NCBI GenBank assembly: GCA_012295275.1 | Contig: CM022673.1 | Location: 23,374,001-23,438,000, forward strand | Direction of reading: 5' to 3' | DNA: 64,000 nucleotides | Source: Chrysomallon squamiferum | Taxonomy: Eukaryota; Animalia; Mollusca | Shown here: one piece after another, positions 3,381 through 64,000 of the stretch | Numbering within the stretch: the stretch's first letter is position 1 | How the letters are laid out: every line of letters starts with the position of its first letter | Notes under the pieces: model-generated | Databases searched by the model: none | What the model was told of the DNA's origin: nothing | Seen by the model: the letters and a program-made list of their open reading frames with translations, nothing else | Position numbers and translations under genes: made by a program

Positions 3381-4026
3381 CTGCACTCTCTGTATTGTTG
3401 TTGTTGTTGTTGTTGTTATTATTATTATTAATAGTGGTAATAATAGCAGCAATAGTAGCAGTAGCAGCAATTGTTGTAATAGTTACTGTTGTCGATACAA
3501 AGGCCAATCTTTATATAGAATAGTCTATTATTTTTCTATTACTTTCCAAATCCTATAAACAAGAAAATATGATTTAAAACAACAACTATACATGTAGCTT
3601 GTTACTTATACTATACTGAAGTATACACATACACCGAGACAGAGAGAAAAATATGGATAAATAGATCTACAGTTATAGAAACAAAGACATATAAATAAAT
3701 AGATATACAGATAGAGAGATTATACACTTTACAGAGAGACTGATTTATAGATAGACAGGTGGAAAGAGAGATGAATAGATAAACAGATACAGAGACAAAC
3801 GGACAAACAGACAGTTAAAACTAGATAATAGATAGGCTGATAGGCAGTAGGATAGGCAGACATACAAATATACTGAGAAATCAGCACTCAGAGGCAGAGG
3901 GATATAGGTAGACAGATTGACAGTTTTTGGACAAGAGTTAACATTATTATTATTCTTTTTTTTTTTCAGAAAACTTTCAAGAATATATTTTTGTTAACTG
4001 TCGACTTGTAACATCAATATAAAAGG

Positions 4027-6320
4027 ATGAATCAGGAACTTAGACTTCGAAGAAAACGTAGGTCTCCAACATACATGATACTGTTTCTGACATTTGGACT
4101 GATTTTCTCTGTCGTTCCGATTTTTTTGTTTTCGCCCGAAAACCCAGAAATATGGTGCATGAACTGGAGACCAGTCTTTCAGCAGAGTCTTCTGTATGCT
4201 AGACTCCTCTTTTTCGTTATTCTTCGACATCTGAAGAACATTTATGAACAATACGATAGCTTACATATTCTGTTATATTTGGGATACATTGTATCTGTAA
4301 GTTATGTTTTTGCTGTGTATGTTTTGGACTGGTGTGCGCTGAAAATGTGGACATGGACAAAGGATAATGTCATACGAAGGCTTGACGACAGTATCGTAAT
4401 CGTTAATGAAAACCGAAATGAAACGACATCGATGAGGCGAATTGCAGAAAAACCTCTTTCCGTCGAAGAACATTTCAGATACGACTACGAAGATGTTCGC
4501 TTTCACTGTTACGACACCTTGACGTTCGATTCGGAAGTGATGCCAGTGAACGGGCAGGTGCTCTGGAAGCATAATGGCAAACTGGTCAAACCCTCCGAGA
4601 AACTCAGCATTGACCTGTCTTTTGAGGAAATCAATGCTACAAACAGTACCCTAGGTTTGCATTCATACTTGGTTCAGTCAACGATGACAATATATCTCTT
4701 GGAAGACCGAGATTACGGAACGTACACATGTCACCTGAAACAAATGGCACTGACGAAAGTCTTTAAAAGCAGCGAAGAGCATGCACCAAAACACAGCAAC
4801 AACAAAACCCAGAAACGTAATCTCAAACGTCATTTTGATTTTGAATTCTCGCCTTGTATTTGTACTTGTATGTGTATGGATCTGGAGAATTACGTCAGAT
4901 TGTTAGAAATCATTGCCAAACAGTTCGAGGAAATGCTTTATCATTTTTACATCAGTTTAGAAATATTTTTCAATCATCTGCACCAGAAGCGCATAAATCG
5001 AACGACAAACTACGACTGGACAGGCCAGTTCAAGCTCACGAAAATAAATAAAACTAGAAAAACAGTTTCAGCTCCACCAGGAACAATTATATCAGTGAGC
5101 GCATCTTACCTGAATTTAGCTGAAAAGCAAGATATATCTCTGGATTACCAAATCAACAACAACGATTTTAGCAACGTGTGTGCCACTGATGTAAATAAAT
5201 GCTCCTTTTTCATCGTGATGTACTGGATTTTGTGGCACGCCGAAGGATTCTTTGGAGTTATTCCTAATTTAGGTATTTACTGGCTGCAAATGCAGAATTC
5301 TATTTTAGGAAAAGCATGGCTATGCGTGTGTCCATCAGCGTACGGTATTCACGTTTTCCGGTTTTATAGAAACTTCTACAATATAACAAGTGGAAAAACA
5401 GAAATCATAGAAGTGGAACATCACCAAACAATTAAACTCATTCCTCGATCAGCAGACCTACTTTTGGTACTCCATAACGATTCTAAACCTTTTGTAATAG
5501 CCGAAGAATGTTGGGATTCGGCAACTAAAAGTAGTTGGTGCTCCAAGCAGGAAAAAGTTATTTCAGAAATAAATACAAACTTTTTCTGGATCGAACGTTT
5601 GTCATGTTTTCTGTTGTTCAGTTTTGGAACACGAGTCACATGTTTTGTTATATGGCTCATAAATCAAATGGGAAAAAAAGGGAAAATAATTATTTTGGAA
5701 GGACTAAGACGTATTGTGACAACTAAGGAAACATTAGGCAGTATTGGTAATATGGGTTTACCTGCTATTATCGACGTTTACATTATTATGCAGACGCTGA
5801 GAATAATCTTGCGCATGACTTAGCGAACATATTAGAATCTTTTGGGAAGAAAGTGTTTTTCAGAGATCGCGATGTCGCAGGCGGACGCATAGAAACTGAA
5901 GCAGTGGGTGAAGCTATAGATACAAGCAGCAAGTATTTAGTCATTGTTTCCGACAACTACATCAACAGCCCTTTTCAGAATAGTTTCGAGTTTCACATGA
6001 TACTGAACAAAATACTCGAGAAGAGGATAAAAGGAAAAGATGTTTTACTGCTTATACACGGAACATGCAACACTGGAAATTTCTTCCACAATTGTACTGA
6101 TTTCGAAATAATAGTCAGTGCTCTGATTTGTAACGAAAAATTGAAACAGTGGTCATCAGCTGACAAGGAAGAGAAGTCAAATATCATGTTATTTGCTTTT
6201 CTTTTCTTGACCAGTGCCATATTCGGAACTGCAGTGACAGTTCCAAATGTTCATATCATTATTCTGAACTATATAACAACAGTATCAGTCTTGTTCTTGA
6301 CGAATGTTATTTATGGATAG
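4027..6320 (+). CDS. Membrane receptor with intronless CDS: 3 N-terminal hydrophobic helices - Ig domain(s) - TM - TIR domain - 2 C-terminal TM helices (IL-1R-like Ig-TIR); 1-nt frameshift at ~5786
   Basis: The 598-aa ORF has Ig hallmarks (VRFHC, VLWKHNG, TMTIYLLEDRDYGTYTC), NxS/T sites and a TM segment ending ...FVIWLINQMGKKGK. After DVYI the frame shifts by -1 into YADAENNLAHDLANILESFGKKVFFRDRDVAGG...AIDTSSKYLVIVSDNYINSPFQNSFEF, which matches TIR box1/BB-loop/betaC-alphaC. Restoring one T gives about 764 aa. Confidence 0.82.
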
Positions 6321-6519
6321 TAAAAACACGCTGTACATTATAAGTGTATTTCAGAACGTAAATACATGAAATCTTGCCGTATATGTAAATGTATAGTAAG
6401 ACTAACGACAATAAGGATGATGATGATAGTAAAAACTAGTAATACATCTTCCGCTTGTAAATCTTCTTAAATAAAATAATACTAACCATGATGATGATAA
6501 TGATAAAAAGTGAAAACTA

Positions 6520-7010
6520 ATAATACTTCTTTGGATTACCAAATCAACAACAAAAAGTTTATCAATGTGTGTGCCACTGATGTAAATAAATGCTCCTTTT
6601 TCATTCTGATGTACTGGATTTTGCGGCACGCCGAAGGATTCTTTGGAGTAAATCCTGATTTGCGTATGTACTGGCTACAAATGCAGGATCTACAGTGACA
6701 AAACCAAATGTTTATATCATTATTGTGAACTATATAACCAGATTGCCAGTCATATTGTTGACGAAAGTTATTTATGGATAGTAAAAAGAAACTGTACATT
6801 AAAAGTGTATTTCAGAATGTAAATACATTTCTGCAACAATCATTACGTTGTGCTCTGAGTGTGTGATGTTGTTACTTAATTTGATTCTAAAAATGAAATC
6901 TTGCCATATCTGTAAATATGTAGTAACAGTAATAAAGATGATGATAGTAAAAACTAGTAAATCTATTTAAATAAAATAATAATAATTATGATGATGATAA
7001 TGATAATAAT
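6520..7010 (+). pseudogene. Internally deleted tandem partial copy of the Ig-TIR gene
   Basis: ~6528-6688 matches ~5138-5298 (SLDYQINN...NVCATDVNKCSFFI.MYWIL.HAEGFFGV...YWLQMQ). It is joined directly to ~6690-6828, which matches ~6229-6367 (final TM, stop, 3'UTR), and ~6893-7005 matches ~6366-6505. No start codon, and an in-frame stop follows the junction. Confidence 0.85.
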
Positions 7011-7702
7011 GAAATGATATCGTTTGAATTATAACTGAATGAGTGGCAGATTAAAACACTGAAACGTTAAAGTAGTAACTTTACACTGAACAATTGTTAT
7101 TTTTATAGTTACATTCCCTGAGTCATTGAAAATCGTTTCTGCGAATAAACTAATGTATTTAATTCTAACATACATTAACAAGATTTTTCTATTGGAGAAA
7201 ATAATTTATACTGTTTTTTTTTGTTTTTTTTTAATAACAAAAATACTGAACAGATTTCCGTAAATAAATATAATGTTTATTTCAAATGCACAAATCATAA
7301 AAGTGATATAATTTTAATATGCAAATTACCAAGATCATGCTTTCTCCCATATTAAAAAAGCAGTATCTGGAATAAGAAAGTAAATAAATAAATAAATAAA
7401 TGATAGATAGATAGATAGTTAATCAGTCAAACAGACACATAGAAATAGTTTATATAGTTAGTTAGACAGATAGACAGATTGATAGACAGAGATAAAGGTA
7501 GACATATAGATCAATTAATCAAAAACCAGACATATAAATATATTATATTTTAAAATGATAGACAGGTTAGAAAGATGCATAGATAAATAAATTAAATAAG
7601 AATACAAATAAATAGGTCTGCCAATCTACTCGAATAAATTTAAAAAAAAGAAGAAAAAAAAAGAACAAACATAAATACTACTACTTACTTTTGTTTCTTT
7701 CT

Positions 7703-7896
7703 TTAACCCTTTCGACCCCAACGACGACCGCCGCCACGCCTGCCTCCCCATCGTCTGCCTCCCCAGCGACGACCACCACATCTACCTCGTCCACCTCGCC
7801 TGCCACGACGTCCCCAGGCATCGACAAATCCGAAGTCAAAAAGGAGAAGAGAGACTGCAATGATCGTTTGTAAAAACAAATGTTTTAGTTATTCAT
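7703..7896 (-). CDS. Secreted Gly/Arg/Trp-rich cationic peptide precursor (putative antimicrobial peptide); 1-nt deletion near codon 3
   Basis: Minus strand reads ATG AAT AA CTA AAA..., i.e. MN(K)LKHLFLQTIIAVSLLLFDFGFVDA|WGRRGRRGGRGRCGGRRWGGRRWGGRRGGGRRWGRKG*. The exon (7899-7689) is bounded by a ttcgatacag| acceptor and a |gtaagt donor. A 3'UTR exon starts at 7366 (ttcttattccag|) with AATAAA at 7281-7276. Confidence 0.72.
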
Positions 7897-9539
7897 GTTC
7901 TGTATCGAATTAAAATAAACATATTTTTACACAATTAGAAACAATTAACCTATTTTTAATTATGGTTTATATACTTTTGAATTTAATCAAAGCCGTAGGA
8001 AAGATAGTTTGTATTTTTCCAAGTGTTTCGTTGTTTCGTAATTTTTCTTTGTTTATTCAACAAAATTTTATAAAATTTCTACACTGTATCAGATAAAATA
8101 CCAGCATCTAGCCCATATTATTTTATTATCATACTTTATTATTAACACAGATTGGTCGTAACAAAAAAAAACATAAAAGGAATGTTTTGGAAGTATTCAC
8201 AGTTACACAATATATTTTGGTTATTTGCACATTTGTACATGCAGTAAATATAGGTCTTATTGTTAAACTGTATTTTGTCGTAGCGCATTCAAATCTTTAA
8301 GTCTGTGTATAATAGTTTGTTAGCTTTAATAAAATAACTATGACAAATAGTTATTTTTTATTTTTAATATTTCAAATCTGGCTAAATATAATATTCAGAA
8401 TTTAATCAAACTCAGCATTGTTTTGGAATATCTTAAATTTAATTATAATCAAATTTTCAATATTCGCAATTTAACTATTAGAGAATATTTCAAATTTAAC
8501 AGAGTTTTCAATAATGGAATTTTAAATGTAATAAAATATTTCTAATTCAACAATAATTTAATTCAATATTTAACTAAGTGTTCATGAACAAACTTTTTAC
8601 TTACATATTACAAGAAATACAAACAGAACTGATATCTTCATTGTTCAGGCTTGCAGACAATTACGGCTGTAACTCCTGTCTTTAAAGTCTCAAAGTCTGG
8701 ACAAACTAGGCTTATAGCAACAAGCTGGTTGATGCTTTAACTCCCTTGTCCAAGACTGGACACTAAAGCTTGACCATAACACTCGTCTTTTTATTCACAG
8801 TAGCAGCATGAAGCAAAATGATCGTGTGGACATTTAGATATGTCCAGGATATACGTGTGAATCCAAGTCATCTCGACAGGTGCTAATCTTGCTGTGAAGT
8901 GACTGCTAATTAACAGTACAGGAAGAAAAACACCTAAGTAGATGTGGGAGAATAACAAAAACGCTGTGTGATGTAACTGATACCGCTATGTTATATTAAA
9001 ATCAGTATAGGGAATCTAGGGGAGGTAGGTTGCACACTACTCGTTTCATTTAGCTTCAAATTTAAGCCAGTTTATAATTATTGTAAATATCATCTTGATA
9101 TATAATTTTTTGATTCAGGTTCACGCTGGTTTGCACTGTTTCCTAATGTTTTGAGATGATCTGTTTTTTAACATTCTTTTTATAGATTTTACCTCCCAGG
9201 TCTTGAAATTTTATGTACTTTATTAGGATTAATCTAATCATAGGTAAGAAGCATAAACGATTATTTTCGATTTTTTATTATCATCATATAACTTAATGTG
9301 TAAAATGTTTTTGTGCGATTGCTTGCACATTTATTTATTTAATTATTTATATACTTATATACCACTGGTTATTTCTCGTTCCATTCAGTGCTCTCCATAT
9401 CTGGTTTATCAAAGACTTGCATATGTTCTCTGTCTAGGAGATGGTGCAAATAAAATATTTGTTATTTGTTATTCAATAAGGAATTGTATCGTCAAATAAA
9501 AATACCAAAACAACAGTAATAAATAAATAAATAAACAAA

Positions 9540-9598
<59 letters not shown>

Positions 9599-11659
9599 AG
9601 GACACACACATATAATAATAGTAATAAATATAAGGTAGTAGTAGCAGTCGTAGTAGCAGTAGTGAAGGTGGTGGAAATTTGACGCGTCCTCAATAACATG
9701 ACGGAAGCAGACTGTCTCAACGTCGTCATTTAATATCTAAAATCAAAATCTTGAGTGTGAAACACCAGTTCATTCATTTATATATATGGAAATTTCTACA
9801 TAATGTAAGTAAAGTTTCTTCTTTTTCTTCTTCCTGTTATTAAATTTGATATGTTTCATGCTGGAAATAAATTAAATAAAAACAAAATAAAAAATTTAAA
9901 AAAATACAAAAAAACAAACAACACAATAGTTTGCATGATTTAATGCTTGCATTAGCACAACAACTGACACACATTCATCTTAATTACACAAATAAAACCA
10001 TCCATCCTCATTTTAATATATATTTACATTGCATCACATAAACATGAATGTTTTACATTCTCTGGCTTAACGCAAGTCCATCAAGGCAGTACGTGCCACA
10101 TGAATCTGGTCAGAAGCATGTTAATACACTGCAGAGGAAAAACAGCAGGTATGCAGTTTTGTTTAACACCGTTAGCTGCAGTTTCTTTCAAAGTGAAAAA
10201 CATTTTAATATGTCTATTTAATTTAATGATCGAAATAATTATTTTAAAAGCAAAACCGTCCTATTTCAAGAAATAACTATAACATTATTAATGACTCGTC
10301 AAACATAAATAAAATAAATAAATAAATAAATAAATAAAAAAAAATGTAAAACGGTTAATAAAAATAAATGAATAAAACGTAAATAAAATAAAATAAATAA
10401 ATAATAAAAAAAATTATATTTCATGAATTAATAAATAATCAGAAATAACGTATATCATCTACTTTTCATTAACAAAATATACTTATGTTATTTTAATAAC
10501 AATTATGCTAGAATTGATTTCCGTTAGTTGTTTTAATAACTTTTTATTTAAGCATTATCAGAATTATTTAGTTTATTGGTATTTCAGTGAATGGATTATT
10601 CTTTGATTGATATTTGTTATTTAATCCACAGCATGAAACACACAAGCTTAGCAATAATCAACACTGATTTTATTAGAACAAAACTCAACATTCCGTGCAA
10701 TAACAATAAATAGCATGAGTTATTTTAATTGGTATTGGTATAATTTATGTGGTTCTTGCAGTTAAGATGACAAATTAGAATTTATATACTTTTTTCTGTT
10801 TTCAGCAAGTGATTATTCAGTACATTTGGCTATCAGTCAATATTTGACGTGTTTTGATTTGTAAAAAATTATATTAACAGGAACAGAATTTAAAACTTAT
10901 CTCTGTCTGTTAGTACTTGGTGCTTACAAAAATTCTTAAATTGGTAAATTATTAAAACGTATTTTTATTCTCAAGGAGAAAACAGCTTGTTAACCATGAA
11001 TAACACACATCATTTGAAAGAGAGAAAGAGCGAAGAAAATAAAAAAAATCAACAATATTTTAAAATATGAAAATTAATACACTCTATGCATATTTTTTTG
11101 GTATAAATAAATTAATATTATACCTGTTTATATTTACACGTTAATATGATTGGTGTAACTGTACGTAAATTAATAACGTACTTCTTTTTTTTTTTACAGA
11201 AAAAAATAAAAAATATTAACGTTGAGAATCAAAACATTTCACTATTATTTCTTTCAAAAATTTGTTCCCAGCTTTTCTGTCACTTTCTGATTCTGAGCTC
11301 TAGATAATCCACCAGACTGACTTGAATTAATGGATTAGAAGAGATTTCACATCCTGCGATTCCAGAAGAACAAAATAAAGTTCTTATAATCAGCGCTTGT
11401 GTAGCCGTCAGTTTCTATATTCAACAAGTTATACGCTTTCGTTGAAGGATTTTTGTCAGTTCAATAAGAATTCCACATTGTGATTTAGTGTTTTCAGACC
11501 TTAATCGCCCCAAAAACATATGACACATTAACAAATAATAATTTGTGTACAGCTTCAGTGAAGAAACAAGTCATTCAACAAATAAATAATGAGTATGTTA
11601 CTGTGTTTGTTTGTTGGTGGGTTTTTTTGGCAATCAACAGAAGTTTTGTTTTTTAAATA

Positions 11660-33454: not shown

Positions 33455-33660
33455 AATTCCTAAGTATCCAAAGATTTCGCCTCACCCATGCGTGCTACGC
33501 TTCACTTAGTTCTGTTCTGTTCGTCAAGTCCGGACTGCACCCACAAACCTTATACATGCGCACTGATCAAACACCGACACCATCGTCTGCTTCACACAAA
33601 CTATGTCACATGCTTTAGATGAATGAACTGATCACGTGACCAGTCCTTCTGCCAATGGAA
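33455..33660 (-). promoter_or_regulatory. Putative 5'UTR/promoter of the Rnd-like gene with a short uORF
   Basis: uORF from ATG 33489 to TAG 33460 (MGEAKSLDT*); TCACGTGAC E-box 33632-33640; CCAAT 33652-33656; TGCGCA at ~33557. Confidence 0.45.
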
Positions 33661-53102: not shown

Positions 53103-53463
53103 CTGCAAAAACAAGAAAAAAAAAAAATTTATGGAAAAATTATCCATGAACAAAAAAAAAAAAAAAAAAAAAAAAAAAGATATAGATTTAAAAAAATATA
53201 ATTGTATTTGTACCTGAAAATAAAACAAATTTGATTTGGTTTATATTTTTAATTAGATTTGAAATTAATTGACATTATTATTATTATTTTTTTAATTTTA
53301 TATTCTTCTTAGTGCTCATCATTATAAAACAATTTTGGCCTTTGATTAACAAGATAACTTCTCAAATTCTTTACAATCTGCATTTAAGGAATTTTAATCT
53401 GGTTCCTTAGCATGAAACTCCAGTTTCCCACTTTACAACTAACTGCTGTGTTCAAATACTCAC

Positions 53464-53619
53464 TGTTGAAAAAATCCACTTCAGAGAGGGATGGGGGAGA
53501 GTCCTCAGTGTCCAAGCATCGGATAATTAGTTTTCTGTTGTCTGTTTTTACTGTCCCCAACTCCCAGGGATCATCAGCTACGTCAGCACCACACATTTTT
53601 AACAAGTCAACCATATCGT
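53464..53619 (-). CDS. BRCA1: BRCA1 exon (BRCT2)
   Basis: tacag|AC GAT ATG...: DDMVDLLKMCGADV...DFFN|gtgagt. Confidence 0.9.
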
Positions 53620-53699
53620 CTGTACAGAACAATGATAAATAAATGACTGTAGTAGTATGTTTTTGTATTAATTAACAAATGCAACAAACTGACTAAATG

Positions 53700-53732
<33 letters not shown>

Positions 53733-53981
53733 AACAAAACTAACAGCCAGTCCACACTTCCAAAAAAATCCCAACATTAAAAATAATAATAATAACAACA
53801 AACAACAATAGTGATTAAAATAATAATAATTCCTCTTCTTTTTCTACTTGATAACAGTAATCATAATAATAATAATTTTGCTTTTTATTTTATTTAGGAC
53901 AAACCTCATTAACATAAATAACAATCGTAATTAAAATTTTTAAATTATAGTGATTTATAAACATAATATAAAATTAATTAC

Positions 53982-54117
53982 CTTTTGTCATTTCATTGCT
54001 AACACCAATGCAAGTCAAACTAAAACCAGTAAAGAGTTTGTCTGGTGTTGTTCTTGATGCCTTTGGTCCATAATGAACTTGTTCACTGACTGTATCACTA
54101 GTAATTTCATAATCATC
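53982..54117 (-). CDS. BRCA1: BRCA1 exon (BRCT linker, start of BRCT2)
   Basis: DDYEITSDTVSEQVHYGPKASRTTPDKLFTGFSLTCIGVSNEMTK|gtaatt; compare human HQGPKRAR...KIFRGLEICCYGPFTNMPT. Confidence 0.92.
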
Positions 54118-54791
54118 CTGAAATTAAAAGAAAAAAGTTAATAATTATAAAAATAATAAAATTAAATAAATAAATAAAAAAAAAAAAATGCATTTTTATA
54201 AATATCAACCTTTAAAAAGCTGAAAGGAGATAATAGCTGCTTCTTGCAAAATACAAAAATGTGATATCAATAAAATGAGGACAAAAATCAAGTTAAATAT
54301 TATAAATTATATACTGACATTAGTTTTAGATAATTTTACTTTAAGTAACAAATTAAAAAATAAAAACCAAAAAAACATTTCACTTTTTAGCTATCTTATT
54401 CAAAATGTACAAGAAATATTTATTCATGTATTCAGTTATATATGGCATTAATATTTTGAAAGATAATTCAAACACAGCATTCATACACTTGAATTTAAAG
54501 GAAAATAAATCTGGAAGAAATTGTTTTAAAAATATAAACTTTCCCTAGACTCAAAAAACAAATACCAAAGAATGTTAATAACATGAGTAGAAAACTACTG
54601 CCGATACTCTTATGATTCCTCTTGTCCACCAGCAGCTTCACATATACATAGGATAAAACCGAAACATCTTAGACAGGCTCACAAAGGAAAAGAATATAAG
54701 GTGGATTAATACTGTATGCTATATTTTGTAACTACTAAACCACTCTCTAAGAACATAATGTTGAAAGTAATCAAAACTTTTGTTTAAATAC

Positions 54792-54916
54792 CTCAGACAA
54801 CAATGTACCAGCCTCCCTTGAATCAATAACCCACTGGAAACTAACAATGAAACATTTAGCAGCAATACCCTGGAAATACTTCAGAGTTCTGTCACATCTT
54901 TTGTGTTCTTCATCAA
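54792..54916 (-). CDS. BRCA1: BRCA1 exon (BRCT1, RTLKY motif)
   Basis: (V)DEEHKRCDRTLKYFQGIAAKCFIVSFQWVIDSREAGTLLSE|gtattt; compare human [23 protein letters not shown]. Confidence 0.95.
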
Positions 54917-55174
54917 CTGGAAAAGACAACAACAATAATAATAATCATAAGCAAAATTAAAAAAAAAGAAGAAGAAGTAATTAACAAACAAAAGAAATTG
55001 AACTCTCAAAACACTAAAATAAGTGTTATCAATAAAATAAATGATCTTTGTTACCAACTGAATTAATTATTTATTTGGTGATACAAATAAATATTGTAAA
55101 AATTTTTACTAAACAGTAGAGGTAAGTTTTATAAACAAGCCATATGGTAAAGTTTAACATATCTCTGTACAAAC

Positions 55175-55262
55175 CTGTTTTCACAATAACGTGTGTCACC
55201 CTGTTGTTGAATTTTCTGTAAAATTTACATTCACTGTTTTCAGCAAACTGTTGCACAACAAG
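55175..55262 (-). CDS. BRCA1: BRCA1 exon (BRCT1)
   Basis: LVVQQFAENSECKFYRKFNNRVTHVIVKT|gtttgt; compare human TTHVVMKT. Confidence 0.92.
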
Positions 55263-55684
55263 CTGGAAAATAAAGTAACAGTATAATCATTAAATTTTAG
55301 TATAAGAATAGCAGAAAATAAAGTGGATCAAAAAGCAAATTAAAAATTCCAATTTGACTCAATGATTTTTCTTATTCAGGGTAACTCAGAAAATTGAAAA
55401 TATTTAGTGAAATAAGTGAATAAATAAATAAATAAATAAATTTGCTAAATAAATAAATCTACAAAATAATAAAAATAAAATCTATTTTCAAAGCAAAAAA
55501 TTAAATACAATATTCACAATACAAATTAAAAAAAGAAATTAAAACACTTTTTGGGGTGTATATCAATAAAATTAATTATAGTATCTTTAATTAAATGTGT
55601 ATATTTCATATTAACAAGCATGACTCTAATGTTATAATACAGTTTAAATAAATTTTAGAACAATATTTTCAAAAGATATCTTAC

Positions 55685-56112
55685 AACTTCATTCCTGCCA
55701 AGACCTGTGGCAACAAAACATTTTCTGGTGGAACTACAGCTACTCTGACTATTAGCTAAACATTTTCCATCTGCATCACCACTTCTCTGTTCAGCCACAT
55801 CCATTTTCATTTCTCTTCTGCTCCCATCTTTTATTAGCAAAGAGTTTTCAGAATCTGGTGAATGCACTGGTTTCTTCAGTTCATCGTTTAATCCATATGG
55901 GACATTTTTAGACTCTTCTGAATTAATTTTGTTAGAAATCTGTTCATGGTCTGTGAGGTCATTAGAGTTCTGCTGTTTCTCTGTTTGGTCTTGAGATGGA
56001 TCGATCAGATCTTCATTGAAGAAAAGATCCTCATTTTCTTCACCTGATAAAGACAGGTCCTTCTCATCCACACATGTAGCTTGGATCACTGACAAGCTGG
56101 AATAGGGACTGC
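55685..56112 (-). CDS. BRCA1: BRCA1 exon (linker, start of BRCT1)
   Basis: Ends ...RKCFVATGLGRNEV|gtaaga; compare human MVVSGLTPEEF. Confidence 0.88.
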
Positions 56113-56420
56113 CTGATAAAGAAAAAATAAAAAGAACCACACAATAATATTCCATTATTATTATATTTTGTATTCACACATACATACAGAGAGACACAAA
56201 AATACCCAAACATTACATATAGTATTTCAAGTAAAGAAATGTAGGCAGATGATGATATGTCTTGAAATATATCTTGTTATTTAAATTATTTAAATTACGT
56301 ATATGCTGAAATATGAAGTATAAAACTGCATTTAAATATTCAAATCATAAAGAATATATTTTCAATAAAACACAACTTAACCAGAATATCCAAAATATTA
56401 AGTATAATTAAATAACAAAC

Positions 56421-56559
56421 CTGTCTGTTTTTGTTCAGATTTCTGTTTTTCTTTCATGACACAACCTGGGGTCCGACTTGCCATATCTTTTATCTTTGCT
56501 TCTGCTGCCAAAATTTTAGCTTTCAGTTTCTCACAGTCTGTTTCCAGCAGTTCTTTTTG
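56421..56559 (-). CDS. BRCA1: BRCA1 exon (PALB2-binding coiled coil)
   Basis: QKELLETDCEKLKAKILAAEAKIKDM...|gtttgt, with heptad pattern. Confidence 0.88.
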
Positions 56560-56928
56560 CTGTAAATTGTTACCAAGAAATGTTAGTAACAGCTACAGAA
56601 CATTCAAAATTTAATGAACCATGATGAAATTATTTTGTGCTTTTATACACAAGTGAAATAATGTATTTCAAACTCAGTTTTAGATTAGAAACATTGTCAG
56701 AATACCAGCCAAAAATAATCCCATATCCCCATAAAAGGCTAGGAAATTGCTAGGACTGGGATTGATCCCAGATCAAAAATGGTGCCACCATTATGGTGGG
56801 TAAAATATCAGATTTATTTAATGGTTATGAAACAAGAGGAAAAAAGAAAAGAAAAGTAGTATTAATATTTGCCGTGTAAACATTTTTTTACCTACATGTA
56901 TAAGTGTCTATGCAAAATGGTAAAATAC

Positions 56929-57017
56929 CTGTGTTGTGAGTATTTCACTCTGGCTGGAGATGGCACTTGATGATGTCAGATTCAAACTGTGGTTTGTGTT
57001 GCTGTTCTGGCTTATAT
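56929..57017 (-). CDS. BRCA1: BRCA1 exon (SQ site preceding the coiled coil)
   Basis: ...SSAISSQSEILTTQ|gtattt; compare human SSQSDILTTQ. Confidence 0.9.
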
Positions 57018-57361
57018 CTGAAAAATAATAAATAAAATAATATTTTATTGAAAATGAAAACAAGTGTGAATAACAATGTCATCAAATCGGTGAAAAATAT
57101 TTGCCATATATTAACTTGTTTTGGTGTGACAGAAAATAAAATAATATGAATTAAAAACCAAAACAAAATGCAGACACATGTTACAAATTCTATTACATTT
57201 CAAAAGTAATGGAAAATGTTTATGATAATAATATGAACTAATACTAACAGTCACATTAAGATTTATATCATTTGTTTGTACCAAAAGCAAATTTATTATT
57301 TGTTTATAAAATAGTAATAATACAATTTACAATATAAGATATTATGTAAAATTTGTATAAC

Positions 57362-57431
57362 CTGAATCATCATCACTGTCATCTATAACAGCACATCTTT
57401 TCCTCTTCATTCTAACTGTAGTGTTAAAACT
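57362..57431 (-). CDS. BRCA1: BRCA1 small exon
   Basis: gtcag|SFNTTVRMKRKRCAVIDDSDDDS|gttata; phases fit both neighbours. Confidence 0.78.
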
Positions 57432-57797
57432 CTGACAATAAAAATAATAGGAAATGAAAAGAAAGAAGAAAGAAAAAAAAAAGGATGAAAATAATTACTG
57501 CATAAATCAATTTAATGGTTCCTTTAATTCATGTGTATGTTATAATTATGTTTATAAAAATAAAGAAACGATAAAGAGAAAAAAGAAAAGAAAAAAGACC
57601 AATAAGATTTTGCTCCAATTACGCACTTCATTTTGTACCAGTTGGAAATGAACATATTTATATATATATATATATATAAAAAAATATAAAAAATTGACAA
57701 GAAAATTAATAATAATAAATTTTCACTGGCCACAATGTTTTATTAGTACTAAGAGACCATTTACATAAACAATTAGTAGTGACAAAACTCCCCATAC

Positions 57798-60700
57798 CTC
57801 ATCTTCATCAGAAGTATCGTCCTTCAAACACTCAAATCTGTTTTCACCTTCATTAGGGGAGCTTGTCAATGGGAAAGCTTTATACTTCTGATCTATGTCC
57901 TGAGATTTATCAATCACTTTTGGGTCACTAAGGTCAAGGTCAAGTAATTGGTTGTCATGGTAAAGGTGACTGGGATCATAATCAATCCTGTCTTCATCTC
58001 TGAGAATGAACTCTTCAGAATCTGATGAATCAGTAACAGATACAATTTCTGATTTGTGTTGCTGAGTTTTTATACATCTTCTGCTTGTTGACTGCTTTGT
58101 ATTACTTTCACATTCTGAATGATCTAATTTATTATTTCTACATTCAGAATCAACATTACTCACAACAGAAGGTTTCTGTTTGCATACTGCTTGCTCTGTA
58201 TCACTTTCACATTCTGAATCAACTATCTTGACATGATTTTCCATTTCTGAATTGACTGCATTCTCAACAAAAGTTTTATGTGAACTTGCTGACAGTTCCG
58301 TAATATTTTGGAATTCAAAATCATCAGTCTTGACATTATTTTCATATTCTGTATCAACAGGATAAATATCAGAAGACTGCTGTTTAATTGGTGTCTGTTC
58401 CTTATTACCATCACATTCAGAATCGCTGATAATCACATCAATTGGGGATTCTTTCTGAATTATGTCAGAATTTTTGCTTCCTGAATAGTATTTACTATCT
58501 GCTGGTGATGACTTAATAATTTCAACACCTGATTCCTCTTGCTTAAGGTTAGTATTTGAATTTGTTGAATACATTTGATCACACTTCAGGGAATCAATAT
58601 CCTTCTCAGATGTATACTTCTTTTGTTTACACATTTTGCTTGTTGTATCATGTTGATCATCAACCTTTGTAGAATCACCTGTCTTTACATTTCTATGTTT
58701 TCTTAATTTATATTTCTTTGTATTAGTCTTTGTAGAAAAGATCTTCTCAGAAACAGGAGATTTTTGATGTACTGAATTATTTTTACTTGCAAGTTCATCC
58801 ATACTATTAACCTGTGATGACTCAGTCACTGAACTTTGTTCTAGACTTGATGAGTATTCATTATTTGCTGAATTCTGAGGAGAATTGCTTTTATTTACTG
58901 ATTTTTTTCTTGCAGGTGATACAAACTCCAACTGTGTATGACGCATAGCTTCAGCAAGAACTCTACTGCTACTGTCAAAATTTTCTGCAAGATTCCTTTT
59001 TGCTAAAGGAGCAGACAAACTTTGAGCTACTGTTGTGTTTTTGTTTTCCACTGCTGTTAAATTTATTTCTGAGGATTTACTGTTGTCTCTTTTAGAATTA
59101 TACAACATATTTGCTTCTATTTTTTGTCTAGAACTATTGCAATATTCATTTGAAGAATCTTGTATTAACATAATATTAGATCCTTCACAGCTTTTCAGCT
59201 GTCTACTGTATGGACTGAAGTTCAGTGTAGGACATTTTTCACTTGAAGTTGTATGAAAAAGACTTTCATATTTATTTCTCAGTTCAAAACTGCTTTGAGG
59301 TGTGGCCATTTTACCGCAATTACTTAATCTAAAACTTGGTTGAGGTGTATTTACCCTAATTTTGTTTTCCAAGCTAAAACTGGACTCAGGTGTGACCACA
59401 TCATTGCTGGACTTCTTTGCAGATGCAATTCCCCTCACTGTTCTCTTTCTTTGTGATTTAGATCTTTTAATAACTGGTTCTGAATCAGAACTGCTGTCAG
59501 AAATGAAAGATGTATGATTGGAACAAGTTTTTGAATCAGTAATATTTGATTCCTCAGCAACAATAAATTTGGTTTTTAAGGTATAATCAAAGTCTTTGTT
59601 TTCAATATGCTTGGTTTCAGAGCCTTTTGTACATTCTTCAGTATTGTCAACCATAGCATTTTCCTTTGGTTCATCATTTGGAAAATGTTCATCTATCAGA
59701 TTTTCCCTGTAATTCAACTGTGAAGATTCTCTTGCAGATTTTCCTTCAACAATGTCTCTATCAGTGGCATCAACTGTGTCATCAGTGCGTTTTAATTTTT
59801 CTGGTGATTTTCTATAGCCTGCCATCTTTTCATTTCTGAATCTTTTAGATATGTGAGAGTAAGGTGAAGCTTTTACAGGACTGCCATCCAAGGAAAAGCA
59901 TCTTCGTTTGGATCTTCTGACATGGAGAACTACATCATCAATGTCATGTCTTACAACAGGAATTGGATCACTACTTATCTGTTCAAATCTTGACAATGAA
60001 TTTATCAAATGAACTGGCGTAGACACTAACTTCACCTCTTTAATGTTTTGTCCTTTTTCAGAAGATTCTTCAATGGCTGAACATGACATCTCACTGTCAT
60101 TTTGTTTCCTTTTTCTATTCTGTGCTGAAGATTTAGAACTTTCCACAGAGGGCTGAAGCTGTCTGCAAAATGAAATATCTGTATTTTCCATTATTTTTTC
60201 TTTATCTGAAAAACTCTGAACAGATATACGGCTTGCAGAATAATCACTGTTATTCAAATTATTGCTAAATTTAACATTTTCATCTGGACATTGTGAAACT
60301 ATTTCCTTAAATTTTTCTGCACTAAATCCAGTTGTTCTTAAAATCGGATGTTCAAAATTTGCTGTTTGCGAGTCTCCATTGTTATTCAATTTCACTTTCT
60401 TTGTTGAAAGATTCTGGCTCTCTGAAGATGACATACATAATGGGGATGTGTAATTATTTACCTCTCTCTGAAATTCTACTGAACCTGTCTTTTTCTCTGT
60501 AACATTGCCACTGGTAGTGCTGAAACATTCAGTTAGAGGCAATGTGGAGTTAATAATCTGTTTGTTTGAACAATTTTTAATATTTGTTTTAGAAGGCATT
60601 TGATTAATAAGATTGTGAGTATCTGAAACTGGAATTAAAATGGATGTACTCTGATCACTTGCACTTGTAGTTCCAGATTCTAATGAAAAAGCCTGAGATC

Positions 60701-61291
60701 CAATGGACTCTTTTTCTTTGCTTTTAATTATTGAGGATTCTGCTAAGGAAATATCAGAAAACTGGATCATTTCAGTTCTAAAATCACATCTATCAGAATT
60801 TAACAAAGTTGATGCTTGACTATCAACCATGGATACATCATGACTATGTTTTTCATCCACTTCACCATCTCTTGAAATTCCTTTTCCAAAAGAAGAGTTT
60901 GTGTTGTCAGCTAATTCAACATCAGACTGATGATATGCTGAAGGCTTCATATCTAACAATTTATTTTCTTCCTTGGATGTTTTCATTTGGGAGTCACTTT
61001 GTGAATTTAATTCCTTTGTTTCTTGATATTTGATATAGCATTTATTTTTATCATTACTTTTATCTTGAAATGATGTTTTGGCATCCAGACTGTCAGGAAT
61101 GATGTTAATATTACAAACAGATGTAGTGTCCTCACAATTTTCATGTTTGTTCCATGCAGATGCAGAATCACAAGAAGGAACAAATTCTTCAGTTTCTGGA
61201 ATATTTACAACTGGATTTAGCCTTCTAGTAGCTGTTCCGATGTCTTCACTCATTTCTGATAACTGTCGTTTTACACTCTCTGGCTGAATAT
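57798..61291 (-). CDS. BRCA1: BRCA1 giant central exon (3494 nt; low-complexity S/E/K/N-rich)
   Basis: tttcag|AT ATT CAG ... GAT GAG|gtatgg; contains most of the 1176-aa ORF; analogous to vertebrate exon 11. Confidence 0.85.
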
Positions 61292-61419
61292 CTGAAAGTG
61301 AAATGTATCTCCTATTACAAATAAGTTTGTTATGATGAAAATATAAAAGTACAATTATATTTTAAAAAATTATGAGAATATTTAAGTTTTGTTTTTTGTT
61401 ATCACAGTCTTCTAGGCTG

Positions 61420-61520
61420 TAACAGCACCTCATTCATGAGAATAGCTTGAGTTAATACTTCTGGATCAGGTTGAATTGGAACCACTACCAAATTTGAACC
61501 ACAGGCTAGGCTATAACAGT
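61420..61520 (-). mobile_element. Possible degenerate SINE fragment in a BRCA1 intron
   Basis: B-box-like GGTTCAAAT on the minus strand in a locally GC-richer stretch; weak. Confidence 0.25.
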
Positions 61521-62057
61521 ATTTCATTAAACTGGGTTGGGGCTAAATGTATGAAACCAAGTTTTCATACATTTTATTTATGGCAAGAACATCATTTTCC
61601 ATAATTTTTCCACAGCCAAGGTAACAAAACCTTATTTTCCAAAACTTTTAAGTTCCTGGAAAACACTGTGATGAATTTTCAAAATGTTTTTTTTTCTTTG
61701 TTATGGATCAACTTTAAAAAGAAGAAACTACATTAACATGAATTAAGAACCTAAATAAGTTAAGTTTTATTTGTTCATAAATATAATCCTTTAATAATAA
61801 TAAATTATAACAATAGTACATCATGCTAATACTTTCCAAAAAAAATGTCAAATAGAGGACACAGTTACTTTGAAAAGTTACTCAGTCTTTATATGAAATG
61901 ACTCAAACAGAAAGTGTCAGATGTCTGCTTGTATTTTATTATTATAATCAAAGACAGTTACTTGAAATAAAATAAAAAAGTGATTATATGAAGAAAAGAA
62001 AGTACAAATATTAAAGGACACAAATGTATTTAAACTACATACATTTAAAACTGTTAC

Positions 62058-62141
62058 CTAGATTGGGGACTTCAAACTCAATGTTTTCCTGTGTTGCGTT
62101 AAGATCCTCAGTATCTGAACTTTCTGTATCACTCACGTCAA
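62058..62141 (-). CDS. BRCA1: BRCA1 84-nt exon
   Basis: ttatag|(V)DVSDTESSDTEDLNATQENIEFEVPNL|gtaaca; symmetric phase 1-1. Confidence 0.8.
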
Positions 62142-62475
62142 CTATAAGTATACATACACACCATATAAAACATTAATTTTAATATTCAAGTAAACAAGGC
62201 TAATTTTATACATAATAAAATTAACAATACTAATAACATTCCAAAATATAAACAAAGACATAAATATGGAAAGACTGTGCAAAATATTATTACAGCATAA
62301 GAGAATAAAATTCATACTAAAAAAAAGAAGAAAAAAAGAAGTAAATGTTGAAGAGAAAGAAAATTAAGTTAAGAAGTGAGCTAACTTGTCAATTCAAGCA
62401 TTATGCAATTTTTTCATCCTGAAGTAGATGTATGCTAATTATGTTAAAAGAATTTACAAAATATATTTTTAATAC

Positions 62476-64000
62476 CTTCATGTTCAACATTTGCATTCTG
62501 ATTCATCAAGTCTTCTTTTTCTGATTTGTTGCAAGTAGAATATTCTTTTAACTTCTGTACTGATTGCTGTGCTCCTTCATTACTGCCTGAAGATTCATCC
62601 TTTGTAGATACTTGATGATCAGCTAATTTTTCCTTATTTACTTGTCTGGAGTTGAAATTTCTACCCAAATTTTGTGTATGGATATGAGGACTAATTGGAG
62701 TAATCTTAGGATACAGAACAGATGGATTTTTTGGTTCATCCAGACTCCCTGATTTCTCCAACAGATTATCAGAACTGGAAACAGCACGTTCCAAATCATC
62801 TGCAATATTGGAAGTAACATGTTTATTATTCAATGACACTCCTGTGTCTAATACTGGAGTTTCAGCAACAACGCTACTGCTTGGAGAACATTTTATTGGT
62901 GATTTCATTTTAAGTTCAGAACTAGTCTCAAATACATTAGAATGAGATTCAGTATTAGTGTTGGTGCATATTACTTCCAATTGATGATGCTGATTTTTTA
63001 CCTTTGATTTAGTTACAACATAATCACAACCAACATTTTTCTTACATGTCTCATTTGGCTTCAAAGTAGAATCTTGATTTGGTATCTGATTGTCTCTCCC
63101 AACTACAGTCTCTGGTTCACATCCGCCTTCTGTTTTGTCTGATTGTTTCAAGACAGTGTCTGTATTATATTTCTGTTTATTTACTTTAGCATTATCCATC
63201 TTTTCAGGAGTAGATTCAAGATTTGTTTGTTGTTTATCCATTTTTGTTTCGTTCACTTGTATAATCATATTTTGGTCAGACTCTTTTAAGCCCACTACAG
63301 ATTTATTTAATCTATTGATATTGTTGTTAAAGATTAATCCTCTTTCTGAATTAGTTTCCCATTCATTTCCTTCATTTTCAGAGACTGGATCTTGTCTGAC
63401 TATTAAGCAGTTATCATGGTCATCATCATTATCAAAATACTGTGATGTTTCTACGGAAGAGGAAAGAGTATCATTTTGTTTTGTCATATTATTAATTGCG
63501 TCCTGTGTACTGAACAGAATATCATGGTCCTCAGCATCTGATATTTTGTCTACCAGCTTGTTCATTTCTTTACTATAATCTTTCCAGTGTACTTGCTTTT
63601 GTCTTCTGCTTTTCTTTGACACTTCCTCTTCTTTTAGAATGGTCTTATTTTGAATGCAATTTTCTTTATTGACATTAAACTTCAATAAGGCTTCATTGTC
63701 GCTTATCTCCATCTGTTCACCAGGTAATTCTGGAGACTGTTTTGGAAACTCCTCAGATATTTTTTGAAGTTTATCACTGTTTAAATTAATTTCTATTTTG
63801 TTCTCCAAAATCTGCAAAGGAATTTTGTCTGATTTCTTGGTACTGCATTTATTTCTTTTTTTACGCCTCTTTGCTTTTGGATTCACCTTAGGAGAAGACT
63901 CACTGCTTTTAAATTCGTAAGGATCAACCGTTAATTGATTCTCAACCGATACATGATTCTGAAGTTCCTCTTCAGACATGTGTCTGCACTTAAAAATGCT
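62476..64000 (-). CDS. BRCA1: BRCA1 large upstream exon (5' boundary uncertain; RING exons presumably beyond the window)
   Basis: The 511-aa ORF frame is open to the window edge; donor GAA G|gtatta at 62476 is in phase with the downstream exon. A possible acceptor lies near 63984. Confidence 0.78.

Follow-up and report, generated by a model that had tools for sequence, protein, structure and literature searches.

A 64,000-nucleotide stretch of the genome of the gastropod Chrysomallon squamiferum (NCBI GenBank assembly GCA_012295275.1, contig CM022673.1, positions 23,374,001 to 23,438,000 of the forward strand; hereafter the window, whose own coordinates are used throughout) contains on its minus strand a GC-rich island (69% GC versus about 30% across the window) that is a coding exon for a secreted-type polycation of glycine, arginine and tryptophan. 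To judge from splice signals and open frames, the island very probably belongs to an intact gene of three exons, and its product may be an unstructured, membrane-binding antimicrobial peptide (AMP). The original prediction, made by a model from the letters of the sequence, had already placed such a peptide here; its view of the island as a minus-strand coding exon of a secreted-type polycation with a spliced 3' untranslated region (UTR) agrees with the composition, the open frames and the splice signals, and its order of readings, an AMP before a matrix peptide, is kept here, whereas its 5' end had to be replaced.

The peptide and its coding island

The predicted mature peptide, encoded at 7816–7706 (minus strand), has the position and composition originally claimed: 37 residues, comprising 16 Gly (43%), 15 Arg (41%), 4 Trp (11%), 1 Lys and 1 Cys, with no Tyr, no Ala and no acidic residue. 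It contains four five-residue units, three of them GGRRW and one GGRRG, and ends in Lys-Gly. Its computed mass is 4.25 kDa, its net charge about +16 (about +0.43 per residue), its mean hydropathy −2.1, and its isoelectric point (pI) 12, which is the upper limit of the program. The tripeptide V-D-A immediately precedes it on the N-terminal side, and a TAA stop follows it. Seven dibasic pairs, most of them preceded by Gly, are accompanied by one furin-type R-X-R-R at residues 4–7, so that fewer than 36 residues may remain in the product.

When all six frames of the window were scanned, the only 30-codon stretch in which Arg, Gly and Trp together exceed a fraction of 0.55 was this peptide (0.97), the runners-up being (AG)n microsatellites at 0.50–0.53. 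No paralog of the peptide was found elsewhere in the window, and no second copy at 80% identity or more over the coding exon was found among the contigs of two of the sequencing runs introduced below (X4 and X5). With its leader, the 62-residue precursor falls within the limits of a screen for glycine-rich AMPs (fewer than 100 residues, more than 20% Gly; PMC12387859).

Structure of the gene

A predicted exon at 8641–8605, originally overlooked, supplies the start codon and the first half of the predicted signal peptide, and for this reason no frameshift needs restoring. The features of the locus, all on the minus strand unless stated otherwise, are the following.

8711–8716: TATA-like TATAAG, a putative promoter element 75 nt upstream of the ATG, by consensus match only.
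8605–8641: coding part of predicted exon 1; begins with ATG and has 12 codons and 1 nt, reading Met-Lys and then a hydrophobic stretch.
7855–8604: predicted intron 1, 750 nt, phase 1; GTAAGT donor at 8604, T-rich tract, TTGCAG acceptor ending at 7855.
8114–8160, no strand assigned: dispersed repeat inside intron 1, containing a CCAAT; depth spike and many loose ends in four of four runs.
7889–7900: competing acceptor and originally proposed ATG; AG ending at 7900, CTAAT at 7938, ATG at 7896; both reach stops within four codons; likely intron.
7817–7854: predicted exon 2, part for the second half of the predicted signal peptide, with V-D-A at its end; alleles with one synonymous change and one Phe>Leu.
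7706–7816: predicted mature peptide, 37 residues; 36 of 37 codons are NGN.
7689–7705: TAA stop (7705–7703), then the 14 nt of 3'UTR that close exon 2.
7367–7688: predicted intron 2 in the 3'UTR, 322 nt, read from the sequence; GTAAGT donor at 7688, pyrimidine-rich TTCCAG acceptor.
7262–7366: predicted exon 3, 3'UTR; AATAAA at 7281–7276; lower end approximate.

Between 8604 and 7817 the only acceptor AG that is open in the peptide frame is the one ending at 7855, of phase 1, with a branch-like CTAAA (7888–7884) 30 nt above it. Between 7860 and 10927, in turn, the minus strand has no GTRAG donor but the GTAAGT at 8604, also of phase 1. The joined frame of 189 nt has a single, terminal stop and encodes the precursor of 62 residues, in which a predicted leader of 25 residues, with a short basic start, a 16-residue hydrophobic core and the V-D-A end, stands before the 37-mer. 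Given this splice, n, h and c regions, a V-X-A site and a hydropathy peak of 3.4 can be recognized in the leader by inspection, and cleavage would occur after V-D-A.

Exon 1 also stands out from its background. The 117 GTRAG donors of the window yield 20 ATG-open phase-1 candidates (18 distinct donors), of which the exon at 8641–8605 ranks first in hydrophobicity (3.72; next 2.22). When 7900–11000 was subjected to 1000 dinucleotide shuffles, a hydrophobic ATG exon with a GTAAG donor arose in 2 (threshold 2.5) and 0 (threshold 3.5) cases, and with a GTRAG donor in 5 and 1, respectively. Its sequence is unchanged in runs X1 and X7, by their listed differences. At the other end of the gene, both the GTAAGT noticed originally 14 nt after the stop and the 3'UTR exon with its AATAAA, behind a pyrimidine-rich acceptor ending at 7367, are present as described. 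An intron 14 nt after the stop is close enough to escape nonsense-mediated decay.

The 5' end had been drawn otherwise in the original prediction: a leader of 27 residues starting 3 nt behind an acceptor, one base missing at codon 3, and a further 5' exon with its donor at 8102 near a CCAAT box. The V-D-A end of that leader is correct, but an in-frame TAA at 7891–7889 leaves no more than 24 codons open, and the AG ending at 7900 and the ATG at 7896, although present, are likely intron sequence, with stops so close by. A weak GT does exist at 8101; the 5' exon assigned to it was rejected, its place being taken by the exon at 8641–8605. Likewise, the CCAAT at 8155–8151 is real, but it sits in the dispersed repeat at about 8114–8160, where many unrelated contigs pile up, and its promoter role was not retained.

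As to the missing base, the stretch is represented in nine public runs, of which seven were compared (X2 and X6 were not included); five of the seven, X1, X3, X4, X5 (with two haplotypes) and X7, from three studies, cover positions 7888–7890. The other two, X8 and X9, gave no records on 7660–8112, and these blanks carry no weight here. One of the five may be the source of the window itself, and each of them departs from the window at several sites. Their contigs run across 7888–7890, extending 41 letters or more to either side, and all their gaps are located elsewhere. The extra base is absent from all five, and an assembly error at codon 3 was accordingly rejected: unless the gene is defunct in every allele seen, the model that demands the base is wrong. 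The segment 7896–7855 is best read as the tail of an intron.

Variation within the repeat and among alleles

Pairwise comparison of the four 5-codon units gives 7, 0 and 22 differences at the first, second and third codon positions, and 23 of the 29 leave the residue as it is, among them changes of Arg codons from CGN to AGR or back. The NGN codons comprise four Trp, no stop, one Cys and no Ser, versus 0.8, 1.4, 2.8 and 2.2 expected; as the expectation takes first and third positions to be independent and the repeat units are not independent of each other, this count is supporting rather than decisive.

Among the variants listed there are at least six coding substitutions: four synonymous, one Phe>Leu in the leader and one Gly>Ser at mature residue 29. 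The synonymous share, 4 of 6, compares with 27% of sites being synonymous (P = 0.052). The only coding indel among them is of 9 nt, in frame, and removes three codons (X3 and X4, two of the five covering runs); seven of the eight non-coding indel entries are not multiples of 3. A non-conservative Leu>Ser allele at 7872 lies within the leader as originally drawn, but in an intron according to the spliced model. The Gly codon of the window at mature residue 29 (position 7732) occurs in none of the five covering runs, three of which have Ser, while the two with the shorter allele also have Ser; it is either a rare allele or a base error in the assembly. Natural alleles thus encode peptides of 37 and 34 residues.

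Several observations count against the gene model and its support from variation. With any GTR donor the shuffles give a hydrophobic ATG exon in 97 and 16 of 1000 (thresholds 2.5 and 3.5), and the criteria of the shuffle test were chosen after exon 1 had been noticed. The acceptor ending at 7900 matches that at 7855 in quality, with its perfect CTAAT, is also of phase 1, and if used would bring a stop immediately behind exon 1. Two Asp are found among the last eight residues of the leader, and the junctions 8605/7854 and 7689/7366 are inferred from sequence signals, not from RNA. The synonymous-variant test is marginal, with the variants counted for X1 and X7 being those listed; a plus-strand frame from 7617, which shares the third positions, scores 5 of 6 synonymous, which means that this test does not tell the strands apart.

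Comparison with known sequences and peptide families

The 61-residue open frame from 7888, used as the query in several searches, begins with 12 residues that are not the N-terminus in the spliced model; the biased composition lowers the power of all protein searches, and blanks do not prove absence. A protein search with this frame gave no match at E ≤ 1 among 318 candidates of 33–107 residues, and one with the exon-2 part gave none at E ≤ 10 among 482 candidates of 87–2000 residues. The 61-residue frame had no match at E ≤ 0.001 among 1.84 billion representatives and no usable match in the ESM Atlas; no PDB sequence matched the peptide, and none of 599 pattern matches to it in metagenome contigs was confirmed.

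The families discussed below are compared on the basis of excerpts from the papers cited. The closest in build are the armadillidins of terrestrial isopods, in which a signal peptide is followed by mature Gly/Arg/aromatic peptides of 46–59 residues in 16 of 17 species (129 residues in one) with a pI of 9.8–12.1 (PMC7017220). Armadillidin H, with 47% Gly, is unstructured even in trifluoroethanol and membrane-active on bacteria and fungi (PMC5031766). Shared with the present peptide are the signal directly before a short, linear cationic peptide made of Gly/Arg/aromatic repeats, a Gly content near 45%, a pI near 12, and the absence of an anionic pro-piece. On the other hand, the armadillidin repeat is GGGX, in 3–7 copies, whereas here it is GGRRW, with one GGGR in the window allele and none in the Ser alleles; the aromatic residues are Phe and Tyr instead of Trp, and the length is 46–59 residues instead of 37. 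Arg is given as '>10%' for most armadillidins (PMC7017220) versus 41% here, and Gly, at 43%, is just under their range of about 45–58% (16 of 17 species). The armadillidins have a conserved 19-residue signal and are restricted to terrestrial isopods, and the predicted signal here, from a gastropod, has 25 residues, a comparison by length and host. No sequence homology between the two has been shown.

The myticalins and modiocalins are, like the present peptide, molluscan, secreted and linear, with 23–47 residues, pI >11, Arg >10% and three exons (PMC5577615, PMC12294457); amidation is predicted in some of them, in myticalins by PAM and CPE processing (PMC5577615), and they are often unannotated. 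The pI of 12 and the 41% Arg found here lie within these bounds. Yet myticalins and modiocalins carry a dibasic site plus a C-terminal extension that is anionic, whereas here the stop follows the cationic peptide and no acidic residue is present; in them the signal and the mature peptide share one exon, with a phase-1 intron in the extension, while here the phase-1 intron splits the predicted signal. Unlike them, moreover, the present peptide has no Pro, and its gene has its last intron in the 3'UTR and no sign of a cluster in the window.

The molluscidins of oyster, pen shell and abalone, known therefore also from a gastropod, share a non-amphipathic chain with repeated dibasic residues (PMC11767717). 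Seven dibasic pairs are found here. Molluscidins are Lys/Ala-rich and are not known to have a classical signal peptide; by this description they differ from the present peptide, with its single Lys, no Ala in the mature part and a hydrophobic leader. The mussel protein Mfp-3 is likewise a small, cationic, Trp-bearing secreted mollusc peptide for which cation-pi chemistry is possible (PMC12721214). It is Tyr-rich, with 10–20 mol% Dopa, and the present peptide has no Tyr. None of the Pfam families, in a set that presumably includes an Mfp-3 model, matched any of three versions of the peptide. Membership of the armadillidins, myticalins, molluscidins or Mfp-3 was rejected, given no GGGX array, no anionic extension, different introns, a composition that is not Lys/Ala-rich, and no Tyr.

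Arg pairs beside Trp in an extended chain are also a feature of indolicidin, tritrpticin and the turgencin analogues (PMC6017362, PMC9696794); the latter, synthetic and Arg/Trp-enriched, bear a C-G-R-R-W-G motif and have minimal inhibitory concentrations (MICs) of 4–32 ug/mL (PMC9696794). These peptides have 12–13 residues and a far higher Trp density. With 11% Trp and a hydropathy of −2.1, the lytic power of the present peptide may be lower and entry into the cell more likely. Many AMPs rich in Trp and Arg pass through membranes and act within the cell (PMC6017362), and a Gly-rich AMP of Artemia hits membranes and shifts DNA (PMC12387859).

Proposed function and alternatives

If the gene is accepted, an antimicrobial role of its product is slightly favoured by analogy with these peptides; taken together with the gene model, the reading as an unstructured membrane-binding AMP has a roughly even standing. 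Such a peptide would be secreted by way of the 25-residue signal and released by cleavage after V-D-A. Its paired arginines would bind anionic microbial surfaces, the Trp at every fifth residue would anchor at the membrane interface, and the Gly-Gly spacers would keep the chain flexible, the outcome being permeabilisation of the membrane, possibly followed by cell entry and nucleic-acid binding. At the C-terminus, amidation at the terminal Gly of Lys-Gly is possible, or trimming at Arg-Lys could leave a Trp amide; the single Cys could dimerise.

A number of facts temper this reading. The composition does not by itself separate AMPs from basic matrix proteins, and no homolog supports any function. 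Convertases could attack the intact peptide at its seven dibasic pairs. Myticalins form clustered, variable families (PMC12294457), in contrast to the apparent single copy here. No kB-like site was found between 8641 and 11600, upstream of exon 1 (42 matches in the whole window versus 36.6 expected). The gene with Ig and TIR domains that lies nearby, as originally noted, does exist, but it adds little: it is on the opposite strand and has a frame change near 5780–5790, and with no kB-like site upstream of exon 1 its nearness is weak evidence of an immune function. Bacteria in low salt may be killed by nearly any polycation of this sort, and an MIC is by itself no proof of a natural role.

Two alternatives concern the coding sequence itself. 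Were the start the ATG at 7896 behind the 7900 acceptor, with one base lost, the loss would be present in every allele seen and the locus would be a pseudogene, which is very improbable. It is true that a good branch motif accompanies the 7900 acceptor, that the ATG lies 3 nt on, and that the 11 codons at 7888–7856 pass as a leader (hydropathy peak 2.77), but hydrophobic translation is natural to T-rich intron tails; with none of the five covering runs having the extra base, the variants downstream nevertheless lean synonymous and in frame, and the phase-matched exon at 8641–8605, with its strong donor, would be left to chance (0–5 of 1000 shuffles). Coding on the plus strand, by a Ser/Thr/Pro mucin-like frame (7616–7873) or a Pro/Arg-rich frame (7707–7907) resembling proline-rich AMPs, is extremely improbable. 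Both frames are open across the island, and five of six variants are synonymous in the Pro/Arg frame; however, the Ser/Thr/Pro frame has no ATG and only one of six variants synonymous, while the Pro/Arg frame begins behind a stop, has no leader and its only Met after the repeats, and turns the CGN/AGR switches into Arg/Leu changes. No plus-strand GTRAG donor is present between 6396 and 9244, and there is no Pfam match at cut-off; the antisense Pro/Arg-rich chain is likely a by-product of GGN/CGN codons.

Other alternatives accept the intact gene and give its product a different task. A structural or adhesive polycation of the shell, periostracum, operculum, radula or foot mucus, in which Arg-Trp cation-pi contacts and one Cys, with possible dimers, drive cohesion or bind polyanions or mineral, is the main rival and rather unlikely, although several facts suit it: Mfp-3, of about 6 kDa, is cationic and has Trp at interfaces (PMC12721214), small secreted basic matrix proteins containing Arg and Gly are known, such as Songin of 76 residues (PMC13756312) and perlinhibin (PMC6003135), abalone shell proteomes often hold low-complexity tandem repeats (PMC6003135), and the apparent single copy and the lack of a kB-like site fit a constitutive role. 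Against it stand the absence of Tyr, and hence of the Dopa that makes up 10–20 mol% of Mfp-3, an Arg content of 41%, three times the 13% of Songin, and a window allele with no His, Ser or acidic block and no Pfam match. A reproductive or other signalling secretion is improbable; the product would then be either a polycation belonging to sperm, seminal fluid or the egg coat, or a precursor that cleavage at dibasic sites turns into very short amidated pieces. The seven dibasic pairs, mostly after Gly, and the R-X-R-R at residues 4–7 would suit such cutting, and gastropods have Gly/Arg-rich protamine-like proteins and fast-evolving gamete proteins. The leader, however, has a 16-residue hydrophobic core, and protamines are not known to have a hydrophobic signal peptide; full dibasic cutting would leave mostly products of 1–2 residues, too short for a known neuropeptide.

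Genomic neighbourhood

The peptide gene shares its strand with a Rnd/RhoE-like GTPase gene and lies downstream of it; the gene with Ig and TIR domains at 4012–6320 (plus strand) is arranged tail to tail with the peptide gene. The Rnd/RhoE-like gene (11660–33494, minus strand) has exons near 33494–33160, 12520–12281 and 11916–11660; among 29 matches from 47 candidates, an exon of this gene is closest to Haliotis (84%), followed by other gastropods at 68–73% for the next matches, which makes a gastropod host likely. At 9880–9790 (minus strand) a strong pyrimidine-rich acceptor is followed directly by an ATG and a short Lys-rich frame, perhaps the 3' end of the Rnd-like gene.

The Ig-TIR gene encodes a multi-pass membrane protein, in which the match to Ig is weak (PF13927, E 0.004, under cut-off) and the one to TIR (PF01582, E 4e-10) spans profile positions 11–89 of 179. 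The frame change of the gene, at the start of the TIR, is either an assembly indel or the mark of a pseudogene. A paralog of its N-terminal part (45% identical over 219 residues) lies head to head with it at 641–1 (minus strand) and runs off the end of the window, and two short duplicated fragments (73% over 60 residues and 57% over 42 residues) are found just downstream of it, at 6510–6778 (plus strand). At about 1407–1322 (minus strand) an ATG is followed by some 29 codons that form a hydrophobic, signal-peptide-like run; its layout loosely resembles that of the leader of the peptide, and it ends in a (TA)n microsatellite with no clear donor seen. Finally, a large gene at 53384–63578 (minus strand) has a Ser/Asn/Lys/Glu-rich open exon of 1212 codons (61361–57723); three of its frames gave no Pfam match.

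Novelty and significance

Gastropod AMPs are few. The gastropod AMP list in the excerpted text of a 2025 review contains no Gly/Arg/Trp peptide of this type (PMC11767717), and bivalves, according to the excerpted part of a paper of 2025, have no known glycine-rich AMP (PMC12294457). Gly/Leu-rich mucus fragments have been reported from a land snail (PMC7554965), so that a Gly-rich peptide as such is not new to gastropods. Among the papers listed for GGRRW-type motifs none is, by its title, on a natural mollusc peptide, and the listings of further literature searches show no account of this peptide; these covered open papers without their supplements, so that an entry in some table is possible. 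Genes of this kind are easily missed, with 62 codons spread over two exons, low complexity, and tryptic pieces too small for standard proteomics.

A bolder proposal, which is unlikely, is that the peptide is convergent with the armadillidins and represents the first gene-encoded family of glycine-rich linear AMPs of gastropods, active in sea water, crossing membranes by its RRW units, condensing nucleic acids via RGG-like motifs, and controlling surface or resident bacteria; its charge density would then be near the upper limit. Were this so, the natural alleles, of 37 and 34 residues and with or without one Arg pair, would form a ready structure-activity series. A peptide of 4 kDa is cheap to synthesise, which makes both the antimicrobial and the structural reading directly testable. 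If antimicrobial, the peptide would be a new salt-exposed scaffold; if structural, it would be a Dopa-free Arg-Trp adhesive or matrix peptide.

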